In this document: positions 18,997 to 26,944 of the stretch, in pieces
Numbering within the stretch: the stretch's first letter is position 1
Layout of the letters: each line of letters opens with the position of its first letter
Assembly: GCA_040767085.1 (NCBI GenBank)
Contig: JAXGPF010000007.1
Coordinates: 64,001 to 128,000 of the forward strand
Direction of reading: 5' to 3'
Length of the DNA: 64,000 bases
DNA from: Kiritimatiellia bacterium
Lineage (GTDB): Bacteria; Verrucomicrobiota; Kiritimatiellia; JAAZAB01
The notes under the pieces: generated by a model
Told to the model about the DNA's origin: nothing
The model's input: only the letters and a program-made list of their open reading frames with translations
Database searches by the model: none
Program-made: the position numbers and the translations under genes

Positions 18997-19800
18997 CTAA
19001 TCCGTAATAAGACCGCCCAGAAAACGGCGGATATTTCCTCGCAACGCCTCCGCTAATGTTCCGTCCGGCACACCGCGCAACTCCGCTGCCGCATGGAACA
19101 CTATGCCCAGATTGGCGGGCTCGTTCCATTCGCCCGCCGCGCCGGCCGGCAGGAGGTCGGGCGAGTCGGTTTCCAGCAGCAGCCGGTCCGCGGGCATCGC
19201 CAGCAAGGCCCGGCGGGCGCGTTGATGATGCGGGAAGGTGATGTTGCCGGCGAAGGAAACATACGCCCCCAGTTCCAACAGTTCCTCCAGCACTTCCAGG
19301 GAACCCGACCAGGCATGCACCATCAGACCGGCCGGCGGCAGGCCATCCCGGCGCAAAATTTCCAGGAGCCGTCCCCAGGCCCGGCGGCAATGGATCGTCA
19401 CCGGGCGCCGCATCCGGCGCGCCAGTTCCAACTGGCCGACAAATATCTTTCCCTGCTCCAGGTCATCCCGGCCGGCAACCAGGCGGTCAAGCCCGATTTC
19501 GCCGATGCCGGCCGGCTGGCGGCTTAACTGATCTTCCAAAACACGCAGCCAATCCTGCGAATGTCCGGCAATATGGCAGGGATGCAGGCCGAATGAAGGG
19601 AAGATCCTGAGGGCCGGGCGCTGGGCCGCGTCGGCTTCCTGGCCGCGCGCCAGCTCCGCCACAAGCGGCCAGTCCTGTTCGGTGCAACCGCAGCACTGTA
19701 CGCCCGCCACCCCGGCGGCGGCGGCCCGCCGCAAGACCGCCGGCCAATCAGCCAGCAGCCGCGCATCCTGCAAATGGCAATGGGCATCGAATAGTTGCAT
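18997..19800 (-). CDS. tatD: TatD-family deoxyribonuclease
   Basis: FDAHCHL, GLHP, IGEIGLD, IHCR, LLLETDSP, NEPAN. Confidence 0.92.
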   Translation of the reverse strand: MQLFDAHCHLQDARLLADWPAVLRRAAAAGVAGVQCCGCTEQDWPLVAELARGQEADAAQRPALRIFPSFGLHPCHIAGHSQDWLRVLEDQLSRQPAGIGEIGLDRLVAGRDDLEQGKIFVGQLELARRMRRPVTIHCRRAWGRLLEILRRDGLPPAGLMVHAWSGSLEVLEELLELGAYVSFAGNITFPHHQRARRALLAMPADRLLLETDSPDLLPAGAAGEWNEPANLGIVFHAAAELRGVPDGTLAEALRGNIRRFLGGLITD

Positions 19801-19819
19801 GGCACTAAGAATGGTGGTC

Positions 19820-19966
19820 GGTGTTCAGTGTTCAGGATTCAGTGTTCAGTGTTCGGTGTTCGGTGTTCGGTGTTCAGTGTTCGGTGTTCGGTGTTCAGTG
19901 TTCGGTGTTCGGTGTTCGGTGTTCGGTGTTCAGTGTTCGGTGTTCAGGATTCAGTGTTCGGTGTTC
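19820..19966 (+). repeat. Tandem heptamer array (A/G)GTGTTC x21
   Basis: 21 consecutive 7-mers, two of them the variant AGGATTC; inverted copies at 20073-20096 and ~20129. Confidence 0.95.
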
Positions 19967-20119
19967 GGTGTCGCATACTGTTATGCATCAACATATTAAA
20001 ATCCTGGCTGATTTCAACCGAATACTGCGTTGAAAGCGGCTCGGTTTTTAGGCATGACAACGGAACCTATTCCACTGAACACCGAACACTGAACACAAAC
20101 TCTACACCCCGCATCCCGC

Positions 20120-21115
20120 TCACTGCCCACCGAACACTGATTTCAATTCCTCAACCTGCCGCACTGCCAGGGGAGACAGCTTCTCCGTTTCGCCCGGCGG
20201 CAGCCGCCGCCCCTGATTAAACAACACCACCACCGCATTCCGCTGCAATCTTTCCAGGCCCAGTCGCATGACCGGCGTATCCCGGAAAATAGCTGAAAAT
20301 CCCGGCTCCAGCAATGCCAGGCAATCCTCCGGCCCGGGCAAGTTTTCCCGCTGCGCCACAAACTCCGGCAGCATGCCGGCACGATCAGCCTGGGATGGAT
20401 TCCGCGGGCAGACGGCGGTGCAACAATCACAGCCGAATAGACGCTTTCCTACAAACCCAGCCGCCGCGCGGGGAATGACGCCCTTATGTTCCACGGTCCA
20501 ATATGCCGCGCACCGGCGCGCGTCCACCAGGCCATCCGGGCCGATGGCGGAATTGGGACAAGCCGCGGCGCACTGCCGGCAATCGCCGCAAAGATCGGGG
20601 GCCGGCGAACCGGATGTTTGCAGCGAAACATCCATCAACACCGCCCCCAGGCACAGGCAACAACCCCAGCGCGGATGCACCAGCGCCCCCTGCCGGCCGC
20701 GCCAGCCCAGCCCGGCACGCAAAGCCCATTCCCTTTCCGGCAGCGGCGCCGAATCAACGCAGATGCGGTACCGGGCGGAGCCGCCGGTTTGAACGCGGAG
20801 AAACTCCGCCAATTGGCGCAACCGCGCGCGCATAACCTCATGGTAATCCGGCAGACGGGCGTAGCCGGCATAGTCATTCCCGGGCCTGCCCGGCAGGTAC
20901 CGCGCCGCAACCATTACAAGCGTTCGGGCACCAGGCAGCAGCCGCTCCGGATGCCGCCGCAACGCGGCATGGCGCACCAGGTAACCCATCCCCGCCGCCC
21001 GGCCGGATGCCAGCCATTGTTCGATAACGGATTGCGATTGGCTGGGTCCGGCCGGCGCGCAGCCGGCCGCCGCAAATCCCAATTCCAACGCCTTGTTGAT
21101 GATGGCGGATTCCAT
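20120..21115 (-). CDS. queG: tRNA epoxyqueuosine(34) reductase
   Basis: DYHEVM, CVDSAPLPERE.A.RAGLGW.G, CGDCRQCAAACP, FGCDCCTAVCP. Confidence 0.92.
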   Translation of the reverse strand: MESAIINKALELGFAAAGCAPAGPSQSQSVIEQWLASGRAAGMGYLVRHAALRRHPERLLPGARTLVMVAARYLPGRPGNDYAGYARLPDYHEVMRARLRQLAEFLRVQTGGSARYRICVDSAPLPEREWALRAGLGWRGRQGALVHPRWGCCLCLGAVLMDVSLQTSGSPAPDLCGDCRQCAAACPNSAIGPDGLVDARRCAAYWTVEHKGVIPRAAAGFVGKRLFGCDCCTAVCPRNPSQADRAGMLPEFVAQRENLPGPEDCLALLEPGFSAIFRDTPVMRLGLERLQRNAVVVLFNQGRRLPPGETEKLSPLAVRQVEELKSVFGGQ

Positions 21116-21184
21116 GTCAATTCGTTAACTACCTGAAGTTTGCGCCATGCAAGTTTGGCGCGGGGCAAGGCGGCGAGAGTGGTA

Positions 21185-21322
21185 GCTATTAGAGCTATTA
21201 GGGGCACGTCTCATGCTATTAGGGTCACGTCTAAATATGTCATGCTATTAGGGTCACGTCTTAATTTGTAATATTTTCAGCACTTTACGGCAGGCTGCAT
21301 GCTATTAGGGTCACGTCTAAAT
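21185..21322. repeat. Ladder of partial duplications of the transposase-element 3' end
   Basis: Units starting (CAT)GCTATTA-G at 21185, 21194, 21212, 21241 and 21298, about 9, 18, 29 and 57 bp long, then the full element. Confidence 0.9.
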
Positions 21323-22356
21323 TTGTAATATTTTCAGCACTTTACGGCAGGCTGTATTGACATCTTTGTCAATCTCGCGTTGGGCTTCCAAGCGTCGCAC
21401 CGCTTCACCAACTGCAGCATAATCCAGGCCGCCCACCGCCGCGCCAAGTTCATGATAGGTCAGCCCGGTGCAAGCCCGCGCCGCCCATAATGCCACATCC
21501 GCCCCCAATCGCCATGCCGGTTGACAAAGACCGCCCACTTTTCCTGCTTCACCGTTTCAACCGTTTTAACCACCTCCGCAAAACTACGTAAGCCGCGTAA
21601 AGCACGCTTCGCCGGCCACTCCCGGCATAACGGTTTAGCTCCTTGCTTTATAGCCTGAAAATATCCTTCGGCGCCAACCGCCAAATTGCTTCGCAAGCGC
21701 TCGGCCCAGTTCTCGGCATAGCCACCCTGACCATATCGCTCAAGTTCCGCACGATACCGCCGCCACCGCTCCGCCCCACGACCGCCTGCTCTTTTCAAAA
21801 TCGCTTCCTGATGCAACCAGTCCGGGCCGCGGTTATAACCGGCAAAGGCACAATATGAACTCCACGCATGCTCCCGTAACACCTTCAGCCGTGAAGCCAC
21901 CTCGGTGGCACTAGCCGCCTGCTTCAACCCTAACCCTTCAAGACGCCGCCCGTGTTTATCCAGCCCCAGCCATTTCACACGCACCGGATTCAAATGCACA
22001 TACTGGCTCAGCCGATAGAGCCACCCACCGCCCTCCACCGGCACACTCTTAAAGCGCCCCTGGAACAACGGCCCAACCCGGTCATGCCGCCGGTTAAACC
22101 AAATACTGTAGCTCACATTTAACCATTGCATCCCACGGCTTAGATTGCCCTCCGGCACGCGCAAAATTAAATGATAGTGATTGTCCATCAGCACATAACC
22201 ATGCACTTCAAACGCATAGCGCTGGCTAACCTTTGCAAGCAACCCCATAAGATGCTCGTAATCGCCCTGGTCGCAAAAGATCCCCGCGCGATTAATCCCG
22301 CGGTTCACCACGTGATACCACCCGCCTGCGTGTTGCAATCGAAGTGCTCTAGCCAT
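21317..22356 (-). CDS. HUH/Y1 REP-associated-type tyrosine transposase with C-terminal DnaA-domain-IV-like HTH (one-base frameshift near 21500)
   Basis: YHVVNRG, NHYHL (HUH), GPLFQGRFKS, YVHLNP (catalytic Tyr), WSSY. Tail RDVALWAAR..TGLTYHELGAAVGGLDYAAV. The second copy reads CATCCCG where this copy reads CATCCG; restoring that base gives about 346 aa. Confidence 0.88.
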
Positions 22357-22362
22357 GTTTAG

Positions 22363-22391
22363 ATGCCAACATAATCCGTAATTCTTGTCAA
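22363..22391 (-). promoter_or_regulatory. Putative sigma70 promoter of the transposase (leaderless mRNA)
   Basis: TTGACA-17 nt-TGGCAT with TG extension; ATG lies 6 nt after the -10 box. Confidence 0.5.
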
Positions 22392-22443
22392 GTATTTATT
22401 ACTTATTTAGACATGACCCCAATTCTTTTACCAAATATATTCC

Positions 22444-23816
22444 TGTTCGTAACAAGTCAAGTGTCCGCTTTTGTAACAAGTGATCTGGGTCTGATTTGTT
22501 ATTGTGTTGTTGCTCCTGGGGTGAGGATTTTCCTCCCCCGCGGGGAAGAAAAAGTGGCTTATGCGACGTCCTCAGCGACGCCAAGATGTTCAACGGTCCT
22601 GGTAGCGCCAACCACATGCGGGCCATAACGGATGGACACCGTGCCATCGAGGTGCTCGCAGACTTTAACCCGGCACTTGGCGAAGCTGAAACGCCATTTG
22701 ATGGTCCAATCTGCAAGCGGCGACTCCCGACAGCCACGGTATTGTCATTTTGAACCTCGCGCATGCTGCACACAGAAAATGCTGTCCAAATCCCTGCTCA
22801 CCGCAAGGCACGAAACACGTTCCTGTTTCCCGCGCCTTCACCTTCATGTTGCGATTGGAAGGAAAGCAGAAACTGTTGTTGAATATAGACGTTGGCCTCG
22901 GCCATCGTCCGGATTCCCGCCTGCCTTAATTCGCGGTATGCCCTTGCCAGGTCTTAAACATCCGCTCTATTCGCCCACGTCCCTGGGGGCTATAGCTCGG
23001 AATATGTTCGATCCCCAACTGTTGCAACGCCCGTCCAATTTGCGTCAATTGACGCCGGTCCAACCGCCCCGCCTTCTTTGGGCGTATAAAGAAATGACTG
23101 CCACGATCCGTGTACAGACTGCAGAAACCCCATGTTTAATAATGACTTCTTTCAACCCCTTCATCACCGTTAATGTCCCTTCCTGGGTACAAGATAGGCC
23201 GTGTAGACTTCGCTGGTGGCATCGTCCATCACCAGGATCGGATCCTGCTTCTGGTCTGGCCAGCAGGGGCAACCAGGCATGGGTGCTGCCACCATCAACA
23301 TCATCCCCGCCATTTGTCGCCGTTCGGCTGCTGCTGCCGATGCGGCCCTCGTTTCCGGGCCTTCGCTACCAACCCGGCCGTCTGCAAGGCGCTCTGACCC
23401 ACTGATAACTGAGCTCGATCCCATGCTCCGCCTGCAGCTTCTCGTGAAAATGCCTCACATTGAAATCCATGTATTCTTCTCGTACAACCTCAGCACCTGC
23501 TTCACCGTCGCAAGGAGCACGCGCCGCAGCACCGGTATCTTCCGCCGACGATCCAGCAGCCCGTCGGAACCATACCGCTCGTAGCGCCCTTCCAGCGCCT
23601 CGCATGGTCCGGTAGCTCACACCTAGTATCTCCGCCGCCTCCCACCACATTAACCGCCCTTCAATCGCACGCAAGATCACTTCCTGTACACCATTGCCCG
23701 CTCCAGCGGCTGCCTTCGGATATTCATCCATATATTACCCCTTTGAATGCACCATCTGACAGCTTTAAGCGGACAACCATTTGTTAATTATGCGGCCAAG
23801 TCATTTGTTTACGACA
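22444..23816 (-). mobile_element. Second IS1202-family copy with many indels (pseudogene or assembly error)
   Basis: Reverse-complement copy of 11634-13019 with the same ends. Imperfect target duplication TTACCAAATATATTCC (22428-22443) / TTACCCAAATACGTGTTCC (23817-23835). Transposase is fragmented. Confidence 0.9.
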
Positions 23817-23837
23817 TTACCCAAATACGTGTTCCGC

Positions 23838-23865
23838 TTGACATTTGTTCCAATCATGCTAAATG
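23838..23865 (+). promoter_or_regulatory. Putative cassette promoter (Pc-like)
   Basis: Perfect TTGACA followed by a TG-C-TAAAT -10-like element, upstream of the attI-like site. Confidence 0.45.
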
Positions 23866-23870
23866 AATTT

Positions 23871-23911
23871 CAGTAGTAATTTCGCAGGTTAGTCTAATAC
23901 TACTGTTGGAG
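23871..23911 (+). other. attI-like recombination site / cassette core site
   Basis: GGTTAGTCTAATACTACT-GTTGGAG. Core GTTGGAGTC (23905-23913) is the exact reverse complement of GACTCCAAC in the downstream attC. 8-bp IR CAGTAGTA/TACTACTG. Confidence 0.55.
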
Positions 23912-23913
23912 TC

Positions 23914-24324
23914 ATGAAGAAACGCAGGACACTCCTGACGATCGCAATCACCGCAGTGCTCTGCTTTGCTGCCGTTCCTATCGCAAGATACCTTCATGCA
24001 TTCCACCACTGGAGCCGAAAGTACAATCAGGCAGAGCGCCTCGTGCCAATCGTGTGGCCAATGTCTTCCGACATTCAGGAGTTCAGCCAAGATCGTGCGG
24101 CGTTCCCAGCATCTTTGGAGGAGCTTGTGGCGTTTTCGGGGGCAACGCAGTGCCTGTCCCTCGCTCGGTTCCCGCACGAGTTCTCCACAGGAACGGGCGT
24201 AGTGTTTCGCATCATGGTAAATGACATGTTCGGGTTCACAGTCAGTGCAGACGGGCGACCAGACTGGATCTGGCCACCTGATGGAATATGGACTCCAACA
24301 ACCGGCGGAACCGTACGCCGCTAA
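23914..24324 (+). CDS. Integron-type cassette ORF, small membrane-anchored hypothetical protein
   Basis: ATG 9 nt after the core G; N-terminal TM helix; stop codon inside the attC; codon usage visibly less GC-biased than the neighbours. Confidence 0.75.
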   Translation: MKKRRTLLTIAITAVLCFAAVPIARYLHAFHHWSRKYNQAERLVPIVWPMSSDIQEFSQDRAAFPASLEELVAFSGATQCLSLARFPHEFSTGTGVVFRIMVNDMFGFTVSADGRPDWIWPPDGIWTPTTGGTVRR

Positions 24325-24353
24325 CGCGCCGCCGGTTCGCCGGGGCGTTGGGA
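24293..24353 (+). other. attC site
   Basis: R'' CTCCAAC ... CCGGCGGAACCG / CGGTTCGCCGG arms with one extrahelical base ... R' GTTGGGA; about 61 bp. Confidence 0.8.
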
Positions 24354-24359
24354 GTCACG

Positions 24360-24428
24360 AGTAATTAGGGGAGTAATTAGTAATTAGGGTCACGTCTAAA
24401 TTTGTAGTAATTAGGGTCACGTCTAAAT
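24360..24428. repeat. Second ladder of element-end duplications
   Basis: Units starting AGTAATT at 24360, 24372, 24379 and 24406; the last two continue AGGGTCACGTCTAAATTTGT. Confidence 0.88.
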
Positions 24429-24866
24429 TTGTAATATTTTAGCACTTTACGGCAGGCCGCATTGATATCTCGATCAATCTCGCGTTGGGCTTCCAAGCGT
24501 CGCACTGCTTCACCAACTGCAGCATAATCCAAGCCGCCCACCGCCGCGCCAAGTTCGTGATAGGTCAGCTCGGTGCAAGCCCGCGCCGCCCATAATGCCA
24601 CATCCCGCCCCCAATCGCCATGCCGGTTGACAAAGACCGCCCACTTTTCCTGCTTCACCGCTTCAACCGCTTTAACCACCACTGTAAAACTACGTAAGCC
24701 GCGTAAAGTACGTTTCGCCGGCCACTCCCGGCATAACGGTTTAGATCCTTGCTTTATAGCCTGAAAAAATTCTTCGGCGCCAACCGCCATATTGCTTCAC
24801 AAGCGCGCGGCCCAGTTCTCGGCATAGCCACTCCTGACATATCGCTCAAGTTCCGCACGATACCGC
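24409..24866 (-). pseudogene. 5'-truncated second copy of the RAYT-like transposase (HTH half only)
   Basis: Closely similar to 21303-21760; homology stops after ACGATACCGC (~24866), 17 bp from the stop codon of the next gene. Confidence 0.88.
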
Positions 24867-24883
24867 TGGCATCCGGCCAGGCT

Positions 24884-26944
24884 TCACTGCCGCTGGATCA
24901 GGTAGTAAATGGACGGGAATGGCCCGCCCAGCGTAAACGAGATGGCGCCGTCTTGTACGGCGGCCGGCACCTTCCCGATCAGCGCGCCGGCGGTGTTAAC
25001 GGCGAATATTTTCAAGCCGCTGACCCGGGTGCCGATTTCCAGTTCCGCCTCGATCACCTCGACCTGGATCGGCCCATGACCGCGATTAAACTGAAGGGTA
25101 TGGTCGGCATTGTACTCGGCGCCGGTGTTGTCCGCCCGGCCCACGGCGGTCAGGAGCAGATTATCGGACTCCGCCACCGGGGCATCGGTGAGCGAACTCA
25201 GGGCAATCACGCCAAAATCCGTATGCACCTTGATTTTCATTCCGCGCAGGGCGATCGCGCCGGCCGCACCCAGGAAGCCGTATGCCGCCTTGGTGCGCGG
25301 CGTGTCAATCGTGGCATAGCGGCGGTCGAGATTGCGATACAGTTCGCCGGTATCGGAAACCAATTTCCGCAGGTTTTCCGGAACCAGCGGGCGGTCCAGC
25401 GGCGTTTGCAGCGGCGCGGAGGCAGAGTCGCCGGCAAAACGGATGCCGACCTTGCGGACTTCCGCGGCGCCGGCCAACGCCGGGACATCGCCGGCGCCCA
25501 GATGAACCTTGCCGGCCGGCGCGGGCGCGGCGGGATCGGGCAAATCCGGCAGCACGACTTCCGCCGGGTTGTCGGATTCGCGGACATCGCCGCGCCGCAG
25601 CAACAGCGCGGCGTGGTAAAACAAGCCGAATTTAGCAGGATCGTTAAACGTGTCGAACACCCCTCCGCGGTACGGGACGCCGGCCAGCGCATCGGAAGTG
25701 ATGGGCGCGGCAATCTGGTCCACATGTTCCCGGCAATCATAGCGGTAGGTGTGGATCGCGGCGCCCGCCCAGCCCTGCAACGCGGCAACCGCGGCCAGAT
25801 AGAGCGGGCTTTCGGCGCGCCATTCGTTGGGCCAGGGATCGTCCCACTCGGAAACGAAGAAAGGGCGGTCCAGGAACCGGCAGAAAGTCAGCCCGCGGAA
25901 CCACGGGGCACGCTCCCCCAGCATGCTGCGGTTCCGAAAACGTTTTTCCGCCGGACGCCACACCCCCCATTCATACCAGTAGGTATGGCCATCGGTGAAA
26001 TCCGCCGTGCGCTGGGCGGCCATCAAAGGCGCCCCGCCGGCGGCCCAGTTGGTGCCGGCGATGGGAATCCGCACGCCCAATTCCCGCAGATGCCGGATCA
26101 TGCCGGCGTAATATTCCCGCTGGATTTCCACCAGGAAGGCCAGCATGGCCGGCGCGCCGGAGGTAAAATCCAGCGGATCCGCCGCCGGCGGCAAGCCCCG
26201 GCCTTCCTCCCAGGCGCGGTAACGCTGCGCCAACTGCGAGCGGTATGGTTCCACCAGGTTCTGCATGCAGGCCCGGTTTAAAATCTCGTTTTCATTGGCG
26301 ATTTCCGTCATAACGATGGCCGGATCGTCCTTGAAGGCCAGGCTGGTATAGGGATTGACATGCGTCCAGATTTGCGCGTTAAATTCGCGCTGGAGTTCGA
26401 TCAGGCGCGGATCGAAATTGGAATACGGCCGGGCGGCCGCCGGCAACTGGTCGGCCGCCGGCACGCCATCGCCGCTGCGGAAAGTCCGGTAGGTCAGCAG
26501 GTCCAGATAAATGTAGATTCCCTCGTTTTTCAAACAATGGACAAGGTAATCCAGGCGGTCGAGACTTTCCGGATCAAGCCGCCGGGTATTTTCCAGGCGG
26601 GCGCCCTTGGTGAATTGAAAAATATTCGGCGTGGACCATTCGCCGTCCAACTGGTGAAAACGCACCAGGTTGACACCGAACCGCGCCAGGCGCCGGGCCA
26701 CGATTTCGCTGTGAGCATGGGTGGGGAAATTGGCGGCGCTGTTGAAATTGACGCCCCAAAAACGGCCGGGAGCGCCATCCTCGAAAACGAACCGGCCGCC
26801 GCGCGCTTGCAGAAAGCCATGGCGGCCTGCGGGCTTTTCGCCGGCGAACACGAACGACAAGTCAACCGGCGCATTGTCCCACGGCAGGGTAAAGTCGATC
26901 ACACGGCGGGATTCGGTTTGCATGTTATTCCTCATTGGGGGCAT
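24884..26944 (-). CDS. Glycoside hydrolase clan-A (GH5-like) protein
   Basis: RFWGVN, GVNLVRFH, HVNPYT...DDPAI..EIANE (acid/base), DGHTYW, PFFVSEW (nucleophile). Confidence 0.75.
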   Translation of the reverse strand: MPPMRNNMQTESRRVIDFTLPWDNAPVDLSFVFAGEKPAGRHGFLQARGGRFVFEDGAPGRFWGVNFNSAANFPTHAHSEIVARRLARFGVNLVRFHQLDGEWSTPNIFQFTKGARLENTRRLDPESLDRLDYLVHCLKNEGIYIYLDLLTYRTFRSGDGVPAADQLPAAARPYSNFDPRLIELQREFNAQIWTHVNPYTSLAFKDDPAIVMTEIANENEILNRACMQNLVEPYRSQLAQRYRAWEEGRGLPPAADPLDFTSGAPAMLAFLVEIQREYYAGMIRHLRELGVRIPIAGTNWAAGGAPLMAAQRTADFTDGHTYWYEWGVWRPAEKRFRNRSMLGERAPWFRGLTFCRFLDRPFFVSEWDDPWPNEWRAESPLYLAAVAALQGWAGAAIHTYRYDCREHVDQIAAPITSDALAGVPYRGGVFDTFNDPAKFGLFYHAALLLRRGDVRESDNPAEVVLPDLPDPAAPAPAGKVHLGAGDVPALAGAAEVRKVGIRFAGDSASAPLQTPLDRPLVPENLRKLVSDTGELYRNLDRRYATIDTPRTKAAYGFLGAAGAIALRGMKIKVHTDFGVIALSSLTDAPVAESDNLLLTAVGRADNTGAEYNADHTLQFNRGHGPIQVEVIEAELEIGTRVSGLKIFAVNTAGALIGKVPAAVQDGAISFTLGGPFPSIYYLIQRQ

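Follow-up and report, generated by a model that had tools for sequence, protein, structure and literature searches.

The locus described here lies in the genome of a Kiritimatiellia bacterium and comprises an attI site, one gene cassette and an attC site beside a transposase gene of the Y1 HUH type, with no integron integrase gene (intI) present. The stretch analysed, hereafter the window, is 64 kb long and corresponds to G000:C26:64001-128000, in which G000 is the bacterium's own genome and C26 the contig; positions are those of the window unless a contig is named, and same-genus relatives include G001, G002 and G003. A preliminary description of this DNA had proposed that the Y1 element disperses attI-cassette modules, targets integron platforms or handles cassettes itself. 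The analysis favours instead, at a probability of roughly 0.85, the view that the locus is a chromosomal integron remnant that lost intI and was decayed by mobile-element activity, leaving its cassette, orf136, orphaned. The locus and its flanks are laid out as follows:

20120-21115, minus strand: queG-like gene (epoxyqueuosine reductase; Pfam QueG_DUF1730 and Fer4_16), the conserved left flank of a variable spacer
21185-21304: tandem partial copies of the 3' end of a TIRYT element (the 'stutter'), recognized by reading the sequence
21305-22419, minus strand: full-length TIRYT/TIRtron element with a gene for a Y1 protein with a putative helix-turn-helix (HTH)
22444-23816, minus strand: degenerate insertion sequence (IS) of the ISNCY family
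23838-23865, plus strand: putative cassette promoter, Pc
23866-23911, plus strand: attI (the surrounding 23838-23911 is A+T-rich)
23906-24347, plus strand: gene cassette of 442 bp with orf136
24291-24355, plus strand: attC site, a G+C-rich imperfect hairpin
24356-24866, minus strand: older, 5'-truncated TIRYT copy
24884-26944, minus strand: conserved right-flank gene for a 686-aa protein, with orthologues at 87-93% identity in three of four same-genus genomes

Integron components of the locus

The attC site at 24291-24355 is genuine. Its R'' box (CTCCAAC, 24293-24299) and R' box (GTTGGGA, 24347-24353) pair at the base of the hairpin in both folds and in the alignment to the covariance model R1 introduced below, and the 65-nt site, within the ~55-140 nt usual for attC, has paired L boxes, an extra base on the 5' arm, the conserved TAC and a variable loop. 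The folding energy is -26.8 kcal/mol for the bottom strand (z = -4.9), which none of 200 shuffles equalled, and -22.5 kcal/mol for the top strand (z = -2.9). As cassette logic predicts for R'' and the upstream core, GACTCCAAC (24292-24300) is the exact reverse complement, over 9 nt, of GTTGGAGTC (23905-23913); the downstream core has one additional G.

When 20000-26000 was compared with Rfam under a permissive threshold, the search returned two chance-level matches only and, since the library lacks an attC family, a clade-specific covariance model was built. The DNA on the cassette side of 18 intI genes of relatives was screened for AAC...GTT hairpins, and 33 attC sites of common architecture, drawn from IntI-adjacent arrays in 13 relatives and excluding the site in the window, yielded model R1. 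Its structure comprises 17 pairs, and 87.6% of cells pair as against 59.2% in shuffles, figures that are favoured by the preselection of training candidates on a fold criterion; the covariation score is 0.609 compared with 0.152 in shuffles, none of 500 shuffles reached it, and pairing in slid registers collapses to 30-38%. Model R1 scores 24291-24355 at 39 bits (E = 5.4e-8), the sole match on either strand of the window. The match is full-length (model positions 1-78) and retains all 17 pairs save two outer ones, together with a 2x1 internal loop on the 5' arm that is also found in the 33 training sites.

The cassette gene, orf136 (23914-24324), ends at a stop codon inside the attC hairpin loop and encodes a small protein, hydrophobic in an N-terminal segment, for which no Pfam or NCBIfam match was found. 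A search of 5.8 billion clusters identified a single homologue, 84% identical and located on a 791-bp contig, and no loci were found in the genome contig or JGI metagenome contig collections. The cassette occurs once in its own genome. Crossover at the attI core would be expected between G23905 and T23906.

Upstream of orf136 the attI-like stretch at 23892-23911 reads GTCTAATACTACTGTTGGAG, with its core, GTTGGAG, at 23905-23911. The region 23838-23909 is 81% identical over 72 nt (E = 1.2e-12) to the sequence that in G003 separates an intact intI from the first cassette, an extent of similarity to a bona fide attI at which a chance resemblance was rejected. The G003 integrase scores 383.8 bits against the TIGR02249 cut-off of 265, and the array that it serves follows the same cassette logic, each R'' being complementary to the preceding core. 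The placement of attI between intI and the first cassette thus holds in the relative G003, but not at the locus itself. A third, weaker homologue of attI, on contig C159 of G001, is followed by a cassette and an attC-like site, and in the three-way alignment of the window, G003 and G001 the block CTAAT..ACTGTT is invariant at the core. The putative Pc consists of TTGACA (23838-23843), a 16-nt spacer and an extended -10 element, TGC-TAAATG (23857-23865); TTGACA, the 16-nt spacing and the TGC preceding TAAATG or TAGATA are kept in the attI regions of G003 and G001. From this layout we infer that Pc is active as a promoter.

Pc, attI, the orphan cassette orf136 and attC are, as we show here, genuine integron material. 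The attI-like site, the single cassette open reading frame (ORF) and the well-formed attC with its R'' complementary to the upstream core had all been recognized in the preliminary description, which named an attC covariance model as a test of the last; each of these observations is borne out, the first by homology to the G003 site beside an intact intI, and the last by the 9-nt complementarity and the R1 score.

The Y1 element and the insertion sequence

The Y1 element is a TIRYT/TIRtron, a type that has already been described. Against Pfam Y1_Tnp (cut-off 23) the product of its gene (21317-22356, minus strand) scores 48.6-49.4 bits, and the translation displays the HUH motif and the catalytic tyrosine in NHYHL and YVHLNP. 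The C-terminal tail shows a weak resemblance to Bac_DnaA_C, at 16.6-19.3 bits and hence under the cut-off of 31.5, and matches the NCBIfam DnaA C-terminus at E = 6e-4. An intact second copy (C25:227666-228781) is 99.2% identical to the copy in the window, which, compared with it, is frameshifted before the HTH by a 1-nt deletion at 21499. The homology between the two ends exactly at the terminal inverted repeats (TIRs) on both sides, and the element is therefore ~1.1 kb long with inverted repeats of 15 nt. The TIRs start GGGGTCAC and differ by one mismatch (GGGTCACGTCTAAAT, 21308-21322; ATTTAGACATGACCC, 22405-22419). Together with its flank the 5' tip reads GGGGTCAT, which fits the GGGGWSAS consensus, and the two ends (GGGGTCAT and AGGGTCAC) are the same in the C25 copy, as is a minus-strand TTGACA (22378-22383) that lies inside the TIRtron.

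The available text of the papers on this family describes elements with GGGGWSAS repeats as TIRYT/TIRtron (PMC3733652; Di Nocera et al. 2013) and places TIRYT in subclass 2.1 of TnpA-REP, with Bac_DnaA_C/HTH tails (PMC6006769; Quentin et al. 2018); in that text the activity of TIRYTs is hypothesized only (PMC3733652, PMC6006769). The element in the window resembles those described there in its Y1 HUH protein, which is related to RAYT but longer and may carry a C-terminal Bac_DnaA_C-like HTH, in the tight flanking of the gene by GGGGWSAS inverted repeats and in residing in a genome without a family of repetitive extragenic palindromes (REPs). It differs from the elements as presented in that text in that the whole element is multi-copy, with two full copies and an older fragment, and in the tandem stutter at its ends. 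A REP system (RAYT/REPtron) was rejected: the TIR motif is rare, with 15 genome sites at up to two mismatches, nearly all at Y1 elements; the ends fold no better than shuffles (z = 0.0 to 0.3); and the REP_Tyr_transpos match, at 57.7 bits, is below its cut-off of 80. An IS200/IS605 assignment was likewise set aside, inverted repeats being present and a significant end hairpin absent.

The stutter units at 21185-21304 all start GCTATTAGGG and grow from 21 to 29 to 57 nt, with copies of the TIR motif at 21222 and 21251. The truncated copy, which the preliminary description had correctly noted close to the attC, has a stutter of its own at 24356-24386, the first unit of which begins 6 bp past R', and TIR copies at 24387 and 24414. 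It keeps the 3' 40% of the gene, is 94-95% identical to both full copies (body from ~24384) and meets the flank of the right-hand gene at 24863-24866 through a CCGC microhomology.

Of 301 genomes of the class, 139 have relatives of the TIRYT at E < 1e-30, frequently several in one genome and frequently at contig ends. A scan of 50 relatives' loci delimited 33 elements whose inverted repeats are exact and 14-33 bp long, most of them starting (A)GGGGTC(A/G); their flanks share no insertion target or duplication, no GTT/AAC core and no hairpin. Copies cluster, with three within 8 kb in G244 and two within 2 kb in G252, and clustering is seen also in G022 and G101. TIRYTs very often carry a tandem stutter of repeat tips with some adjoining bases, in some cases with a mirror image at the opposite end (loci L067, L081, L082, L083, L085, L087, L092, L094, L103 and L108). 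The tandem stutter may record the enzyme's mode of action at the element ends, and the 99.2%-identical copies together with the end stutter point to recent mobility of the entire TIRtron.

The IS between the TIRtron and Pc belongs to a family with 31 full-length copies in the genome, the copy in the window included. The transposase of an intact copy matches NF033594 at 352.7 bits (cut-off 250), and the inverted ends and target duplications of 14-16 bp were defined on nine copies. In the window the 16-bp target duplication has diverged (TTACCAAATATATTCC at 22428-22443; TTACCCAAATACGTGTTCC at 23817-23835), ~35 small indels separate the copy from an intact one and it retains ORF fragments only, features by which it is judged old and degenerate. 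The differences consist mainly of these indels, of 1-4 bases each, while the aligned bases are 98.3% identical, an unusual form of decay that could reflect local assembly error. Eight of the nine ISNCY copies inspected lie directly upstream of a TTGACA-like hexamer (TTGACA, TTGCAA, TTGACT, TTGCCA, TTGAAT and others; examples of other copies are G000:C26:281153-282545 and C22:133971-135356), as if the element targeted A+T-rich DNA just upstream of -35 boxes.

Absence of the integrase and probable history of the spot

The genome of the bacterium encodes no working IntI. None of its five matches to TIGR02249 reaches the cut-off, the best being a partial match of 101 bits on C23, and tblastn with the G003 IntI found nothing in 20000-26000 at E <= 1. 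The preliminary description had noted the lack of a tyrosine recombinase in the window, and this extends to the whole of contig C26, which has no match to PF00589 (Phage_integrase); all six matches in the genome are on other contigs. The C23 match (~307040-307420) is an intI pseudogene in which an N-terminal stub (..HYSYRTEQIYLGW..) runs directly into the final ~70 residues, the C-terminal part being 60% identical to the G003 IntI. It was considered as the missing half of the integron in the window and rejected, as it has its own N-terminal stub and C-terminal part and no R1 attC match within ~4 kb. Tblastn with the G003 IntI also found no N-terminal fragment of intI in the G002 spacer orthologous to the one in the window.

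Integrons are endemic in the lineage, since IntI scores above the TIGR02249 cut-off in 28 of 61 related genomes, two of them of the same genus. In the bacterium's own genome R1 gave at least 20 matches at E <= 1, at least 14 of them at E < 0.01, from a search that scored 150 of ~8945 first-look candidates; they form small clusters on C2, C3, C11, C22, C23 and C27. Judged from their distribution, the scattered matches present the pattern of attC clusters without integrase. G001, which has no IntI above the cut-off, yet keeps Pc-attI, a cassette and an attC-like site beside a truA-like gene (G001:C159:1-2345), and this looks like a second, independent loss of intI with attI retained.

The spot itself is variable. 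On its left, queG has orthologues in all four same-genus genomes (70-79% identity), and nucleotide homology to relatives stops at ~21117-21131; on its right, Pfam gave no match for the 686-aa protein, which we guess to be glycoside-hydrolase-like (the GH gene below). Between queG and GH, G001 has an unrelated gene for a 340-aa protein and G002 ~3 kb of other genes. In G003 a 70-nt remnant of a TIRYT 3' end lies directly beside queG and is more similar to the truncated copy (85.9%) than to the full copy (81.4%), while homology to the GH flank of relatives sets in again at 24863, precisely at the breakpoint of the truncated copy. Because the remnant is closest to the truncated copy, and flank homology resumes at the break of that copy, an older TIRYT was probably present at the spot before the genomes diverged, and probably lost its 5' part by a later deletion. 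The younger TIRYT copy, the attI-cassette-attC module and the ISNCY element lie between queG and the end of the older copy. Judged from this one genome, all three could have come through recombination among copies of the element, through insertions independent of one another or, improbably, as a single TIRYT-borne unit.

Two further observations concern the left flank. A G+C-rich motif of 32 nt (21150-21181), between queG and the stutter, has three further copies in the genome at 94-97% (C25:68016-68047, C25:45900-45931 and C2:196742-196773). Downstream of queG, at ~19680-20030, lies a short tandem DNA repeat in which ORFs read as repeated CSVFGVR units; the orthologous contig of G001 has a similar tandem repeat at the end distal to queG.

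The course of events that we favour would start from a chromosomal integron of the type common in the lineage, with conserved Pc and attI followed by a single cassette and its attC, and with an integrase gene that once lay divergently upstream of Pc. Mobile elements would have been responsible for the disappearance of this gene. With the later IS taken out, the TIRtron, an IS-like element with terminal inverted repeats of the form GGGGTCAY, ends ~40 bp upstream of the -35 box of Pc, and the ISNCY element would have inserted afterwards, between the TIRtron and Pc, while the older TIRtron copy abutting attC would have been truncated by a deletion reaching into the neighbouring gene. What remains would be an orphan cassette, presumably expressed constitutively and, because the genome encodes no working IntI, frozen in place; attI and attC would be active only with an integrase provided in trans. 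To judge from its family, the Y1 protein would have the inverted repeats of its own element as substrate, and neither attI nor attC. The divergent look of the locus, promoter facing promoter, would then be an accident of where the TIRtron ends, and the spacing of ~160 bp that the preliminary description had likened to the geometry of intI is best read in this way, as distinct from an intI-like gene arrangement.

Alternative origins and known systems

Whether the Y1 element has a particular relationship with integron sites can be judged from its occurrence elsewhere. At 29 TIRYT loci of other genomes, searched with R1 in 1.5-kb flanks, one (G252:C233) had matches at E < 0.01, to two attC sites; at 20 further loci with 2.5-kb flanks and 24 gene matches there were none. 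An attC thus lies within 1.5-2.5 kb at 1 of 49 TIRYT loci from other genomes, and of the two TIRYTs at G252:C233 one has split a cassette ORF, while an unrelated gene harbours the other; neither is at an attC core. The C25 copy has no R1 attC match within ~4 kb, and a hairpin adjoining that copy was rejected as an attC for want of an R1 match. Within the family, TIRYT is present in 12 of 15 IntI-positive and 11 of 17 IntI-negative genomes, a tally of related genomes and not a statistical test. There is no general association between TIRYT and attC.

It should be emphasized that several observations weigh against an integron remnant whose neighbours are there by accident. In the bacterium's own genome Y1 elements lie near attC more often than chance predicts: the two TIRYT copies in the window flank the attI/attC pair, and an integrase-less cluster of three attC sites at C27:96677-101860 is closed by a different Y1 element (100657-101860). 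The bracketing of cassettes by two TIRYTs recurs at G252:C233, and the boundaries of the module, which on both sides are TIRYT 3' ends in the same orientation, are expected from capture and mobilization too. The sequences just past both cores (TTGGAGTCATG, 23905-23915; TTGGGAGTCACG, 24347-24358) resemble, by eye, a TIR tip with its flank (TTGGGGTCATG, gene strand, 22409-22423). The deletion of intI at this spot is inferred, not observed, because the G003 integron is non-syntenic, only its 72-nt attI finding a match in 10000-36000; the comparison with related genomes, which had been proposed as a test of simple intI deletion, thus provides an intact intI beside a homologous attI in a same-genus genome but not at the same locus. 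Model R1 is our own clade-specific model, with a shortened calibration, and not that of IntegronFinder, and only part of the candidates in the genome were scored with it. Finally, the back-to-back TTGACA promoters of the preliminary description stand in so far as both hexamers exist; a simple sigma-70 consensus scan flags neither, Pc included, and the minus-strand hexamer is internal to the Y1 element. The TIRYT pairs can be explained by the general clustering of copies, without recourse to integrons, and it is plausible that dispensable cassette arrays are sinks for any IS. In the C27 cluster the attC sites follow an HNH gene, a gene for a 569-aa kinase-like protein and other cassettes, and the Y1 element there has a 246-aa ORF, GGGGTCGGACC inverted repeats and a tandem duplication of its 5' 240 bp.

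It could be argued that the TIRtron captured Pc, attI, cassette and attC without intI and moved them to a new site, the 3.2 kb at ~21185-24386 being one transposed unit. By analogy with the read-through of ISCR/IS91, processing from the 3' end might have continued through the element's own 5' repeat into adjacent integron DNA; the unit would then have been resolved or integrated where the older copy beside queG has its 3' repeat. Such a unit would account for the two same-orientation TIRYT 3' ends at its borders; the older-end remnant beside queG in G003 suggests that the intervening DNA of G000 came later, the frequency of duplicated tandem ends and the clustering of copies suggest an enzyme acting repeatedly at existing ends, and the two TIRYTs of G252:C233 bracket two attC sites. 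No second instance of the module was found, however, the cassette being unique in the genome and orf136 having one homologue and no locus in the two contig collections; homologous recombination between copies, or independent insertions into a dispensable region, give the same picture; the published account, in its available text, gives no established mechanism for TIRYT transposition, its activity being hypothesized; and the insertion point is beyond reconstruction, since G000 and G003 do not agree in their queG-side flanks. We regard capture as unlikely. Preferential insertion of TIRYTs at folded single strands of attC or attI, as IS1111-attC elements and group IIC-attC introns insert at attC, is more doubtful still. 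The stutter of the older copy starting so close to the R' core, the second Y1 element on C27, the TIRYTs within the cassette array of G252:C233 and the resemblance of TIR tip to core would all suit it, but the single attC-associated locus among 49 is about what attC density predicts, the flanks of the 33 delimited elements have no common GTT/AAC core or hairpin, the G252 elements are not at an attC core and the C25 copy has no attC nearby. The proposal of the preliminary description that the element targets integron platforms, and the enrichment of homologues next to attC by which it was to be judged, are not supported by these counts.

Two further explanations have very little to recommend them. 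If the hairpin were a terminator or a chance palindrome, and attI a chance similarity, the position of the hairpin at the 3' end of an ORF and its G+C-richness would be accommodated; against this, there is no T-tract, a terminator scan made no call, the match to the attC model is full-length at E = 5e-8, and both the attI homology and the fit of R'' to the upstream core over 9 nt would have to be coincidental, which makes this reading extremely improbable. That the Y1 HUH protein replaced IntI as the cassette recombinase of the platform, a reading close to the preliminary description's suggestion that the element takes part in cassette handling, we consider close to negligible in probability. 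IntI and HUH Y1 enzymes both act on single-stranded DNA, and this property and the divergent gene upstream of attI are what speak for a replacement. The Y1 gene, however, is inside its own TIR-bounded element and is found elsewhere without integron sites, as on C25; the copy in the window is frameshifted; the IS sits between it and attI; the attI and attC are of the type served by a normal IntI in G003; and no association extends across the class.

The integron remnant can be compared with several known arrangements. CALINs are groups of at least two close attC sites without integrase, and In0 is also a category of IntegronFinder. Like sedentary chromosomal integrons and both of these categories, the locus has elements of a familiar plan, Pc-attI and behind it a promoterless orphan cassette with a terminal attC, in a lineage with many complete integrons and integrase-less attC clusters. 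It differs from In0 and complete integrons in lacking intI, and from CALINs in having one attC only by R1, which is below the two that define them, and an attI that survives without intI, as in G001. There are class 1 integrons in which intI1 is truncated or deleted by IS elements such as IS26, and Pc, attI and the cassettes stay expressed. As in the course of events favoured here, a mobile element removes or cuts the integrase while Pc, attI and cassettes remain; at the present locus, by contrast, the integron is environmental and chromosomal, without a resistance gene, the elements are a TIRtron and an ISNCY, and no stub of intI is left. ISCR1/IS91 elements beside class 1 integrons ('complex integrons') encode Y2-type rolling-circle transposases, lack inverted repeats and move neighbouring DNA by read-through. 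They share with the present locus an HUH-type element adjoining integron DNA, whereas the element in the window is of Y1 type with inverted repeats, and mobilization is here only a candidate process. For IS1111-attC elements and group IIC-attC introns the point of insertion within attC is fixed; a mobile element adjoins attC in the window as well, but the flanks of TIRYTs contain no such target and 48 of 49 loci have no attC.

What had appeared to be an integron with an HUH enzyme in the integrase slot is, on the reading favoured here, an ordinary decayed integron beside an element of a described kind, and not a new recombination system. For the family of elements, the 99% identical copies, old fragments, clustering and duplicated ends provide fairly direct evidence of the mobility of whole TIRtrons, and, if the capture of the module were true, TIRtrons would be vehicles that spread ready-to-express integron platforms usable by any incoming IntI. 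The clade-specific attC model reveals small attC clusters scattered through a genome without a working integrase. The genus has a recognizable, conserved Pc-attI that in at least two genomes (G000 and G001) has outlasted intI, which would provide a route to fixed, expressed orphan cassettes.

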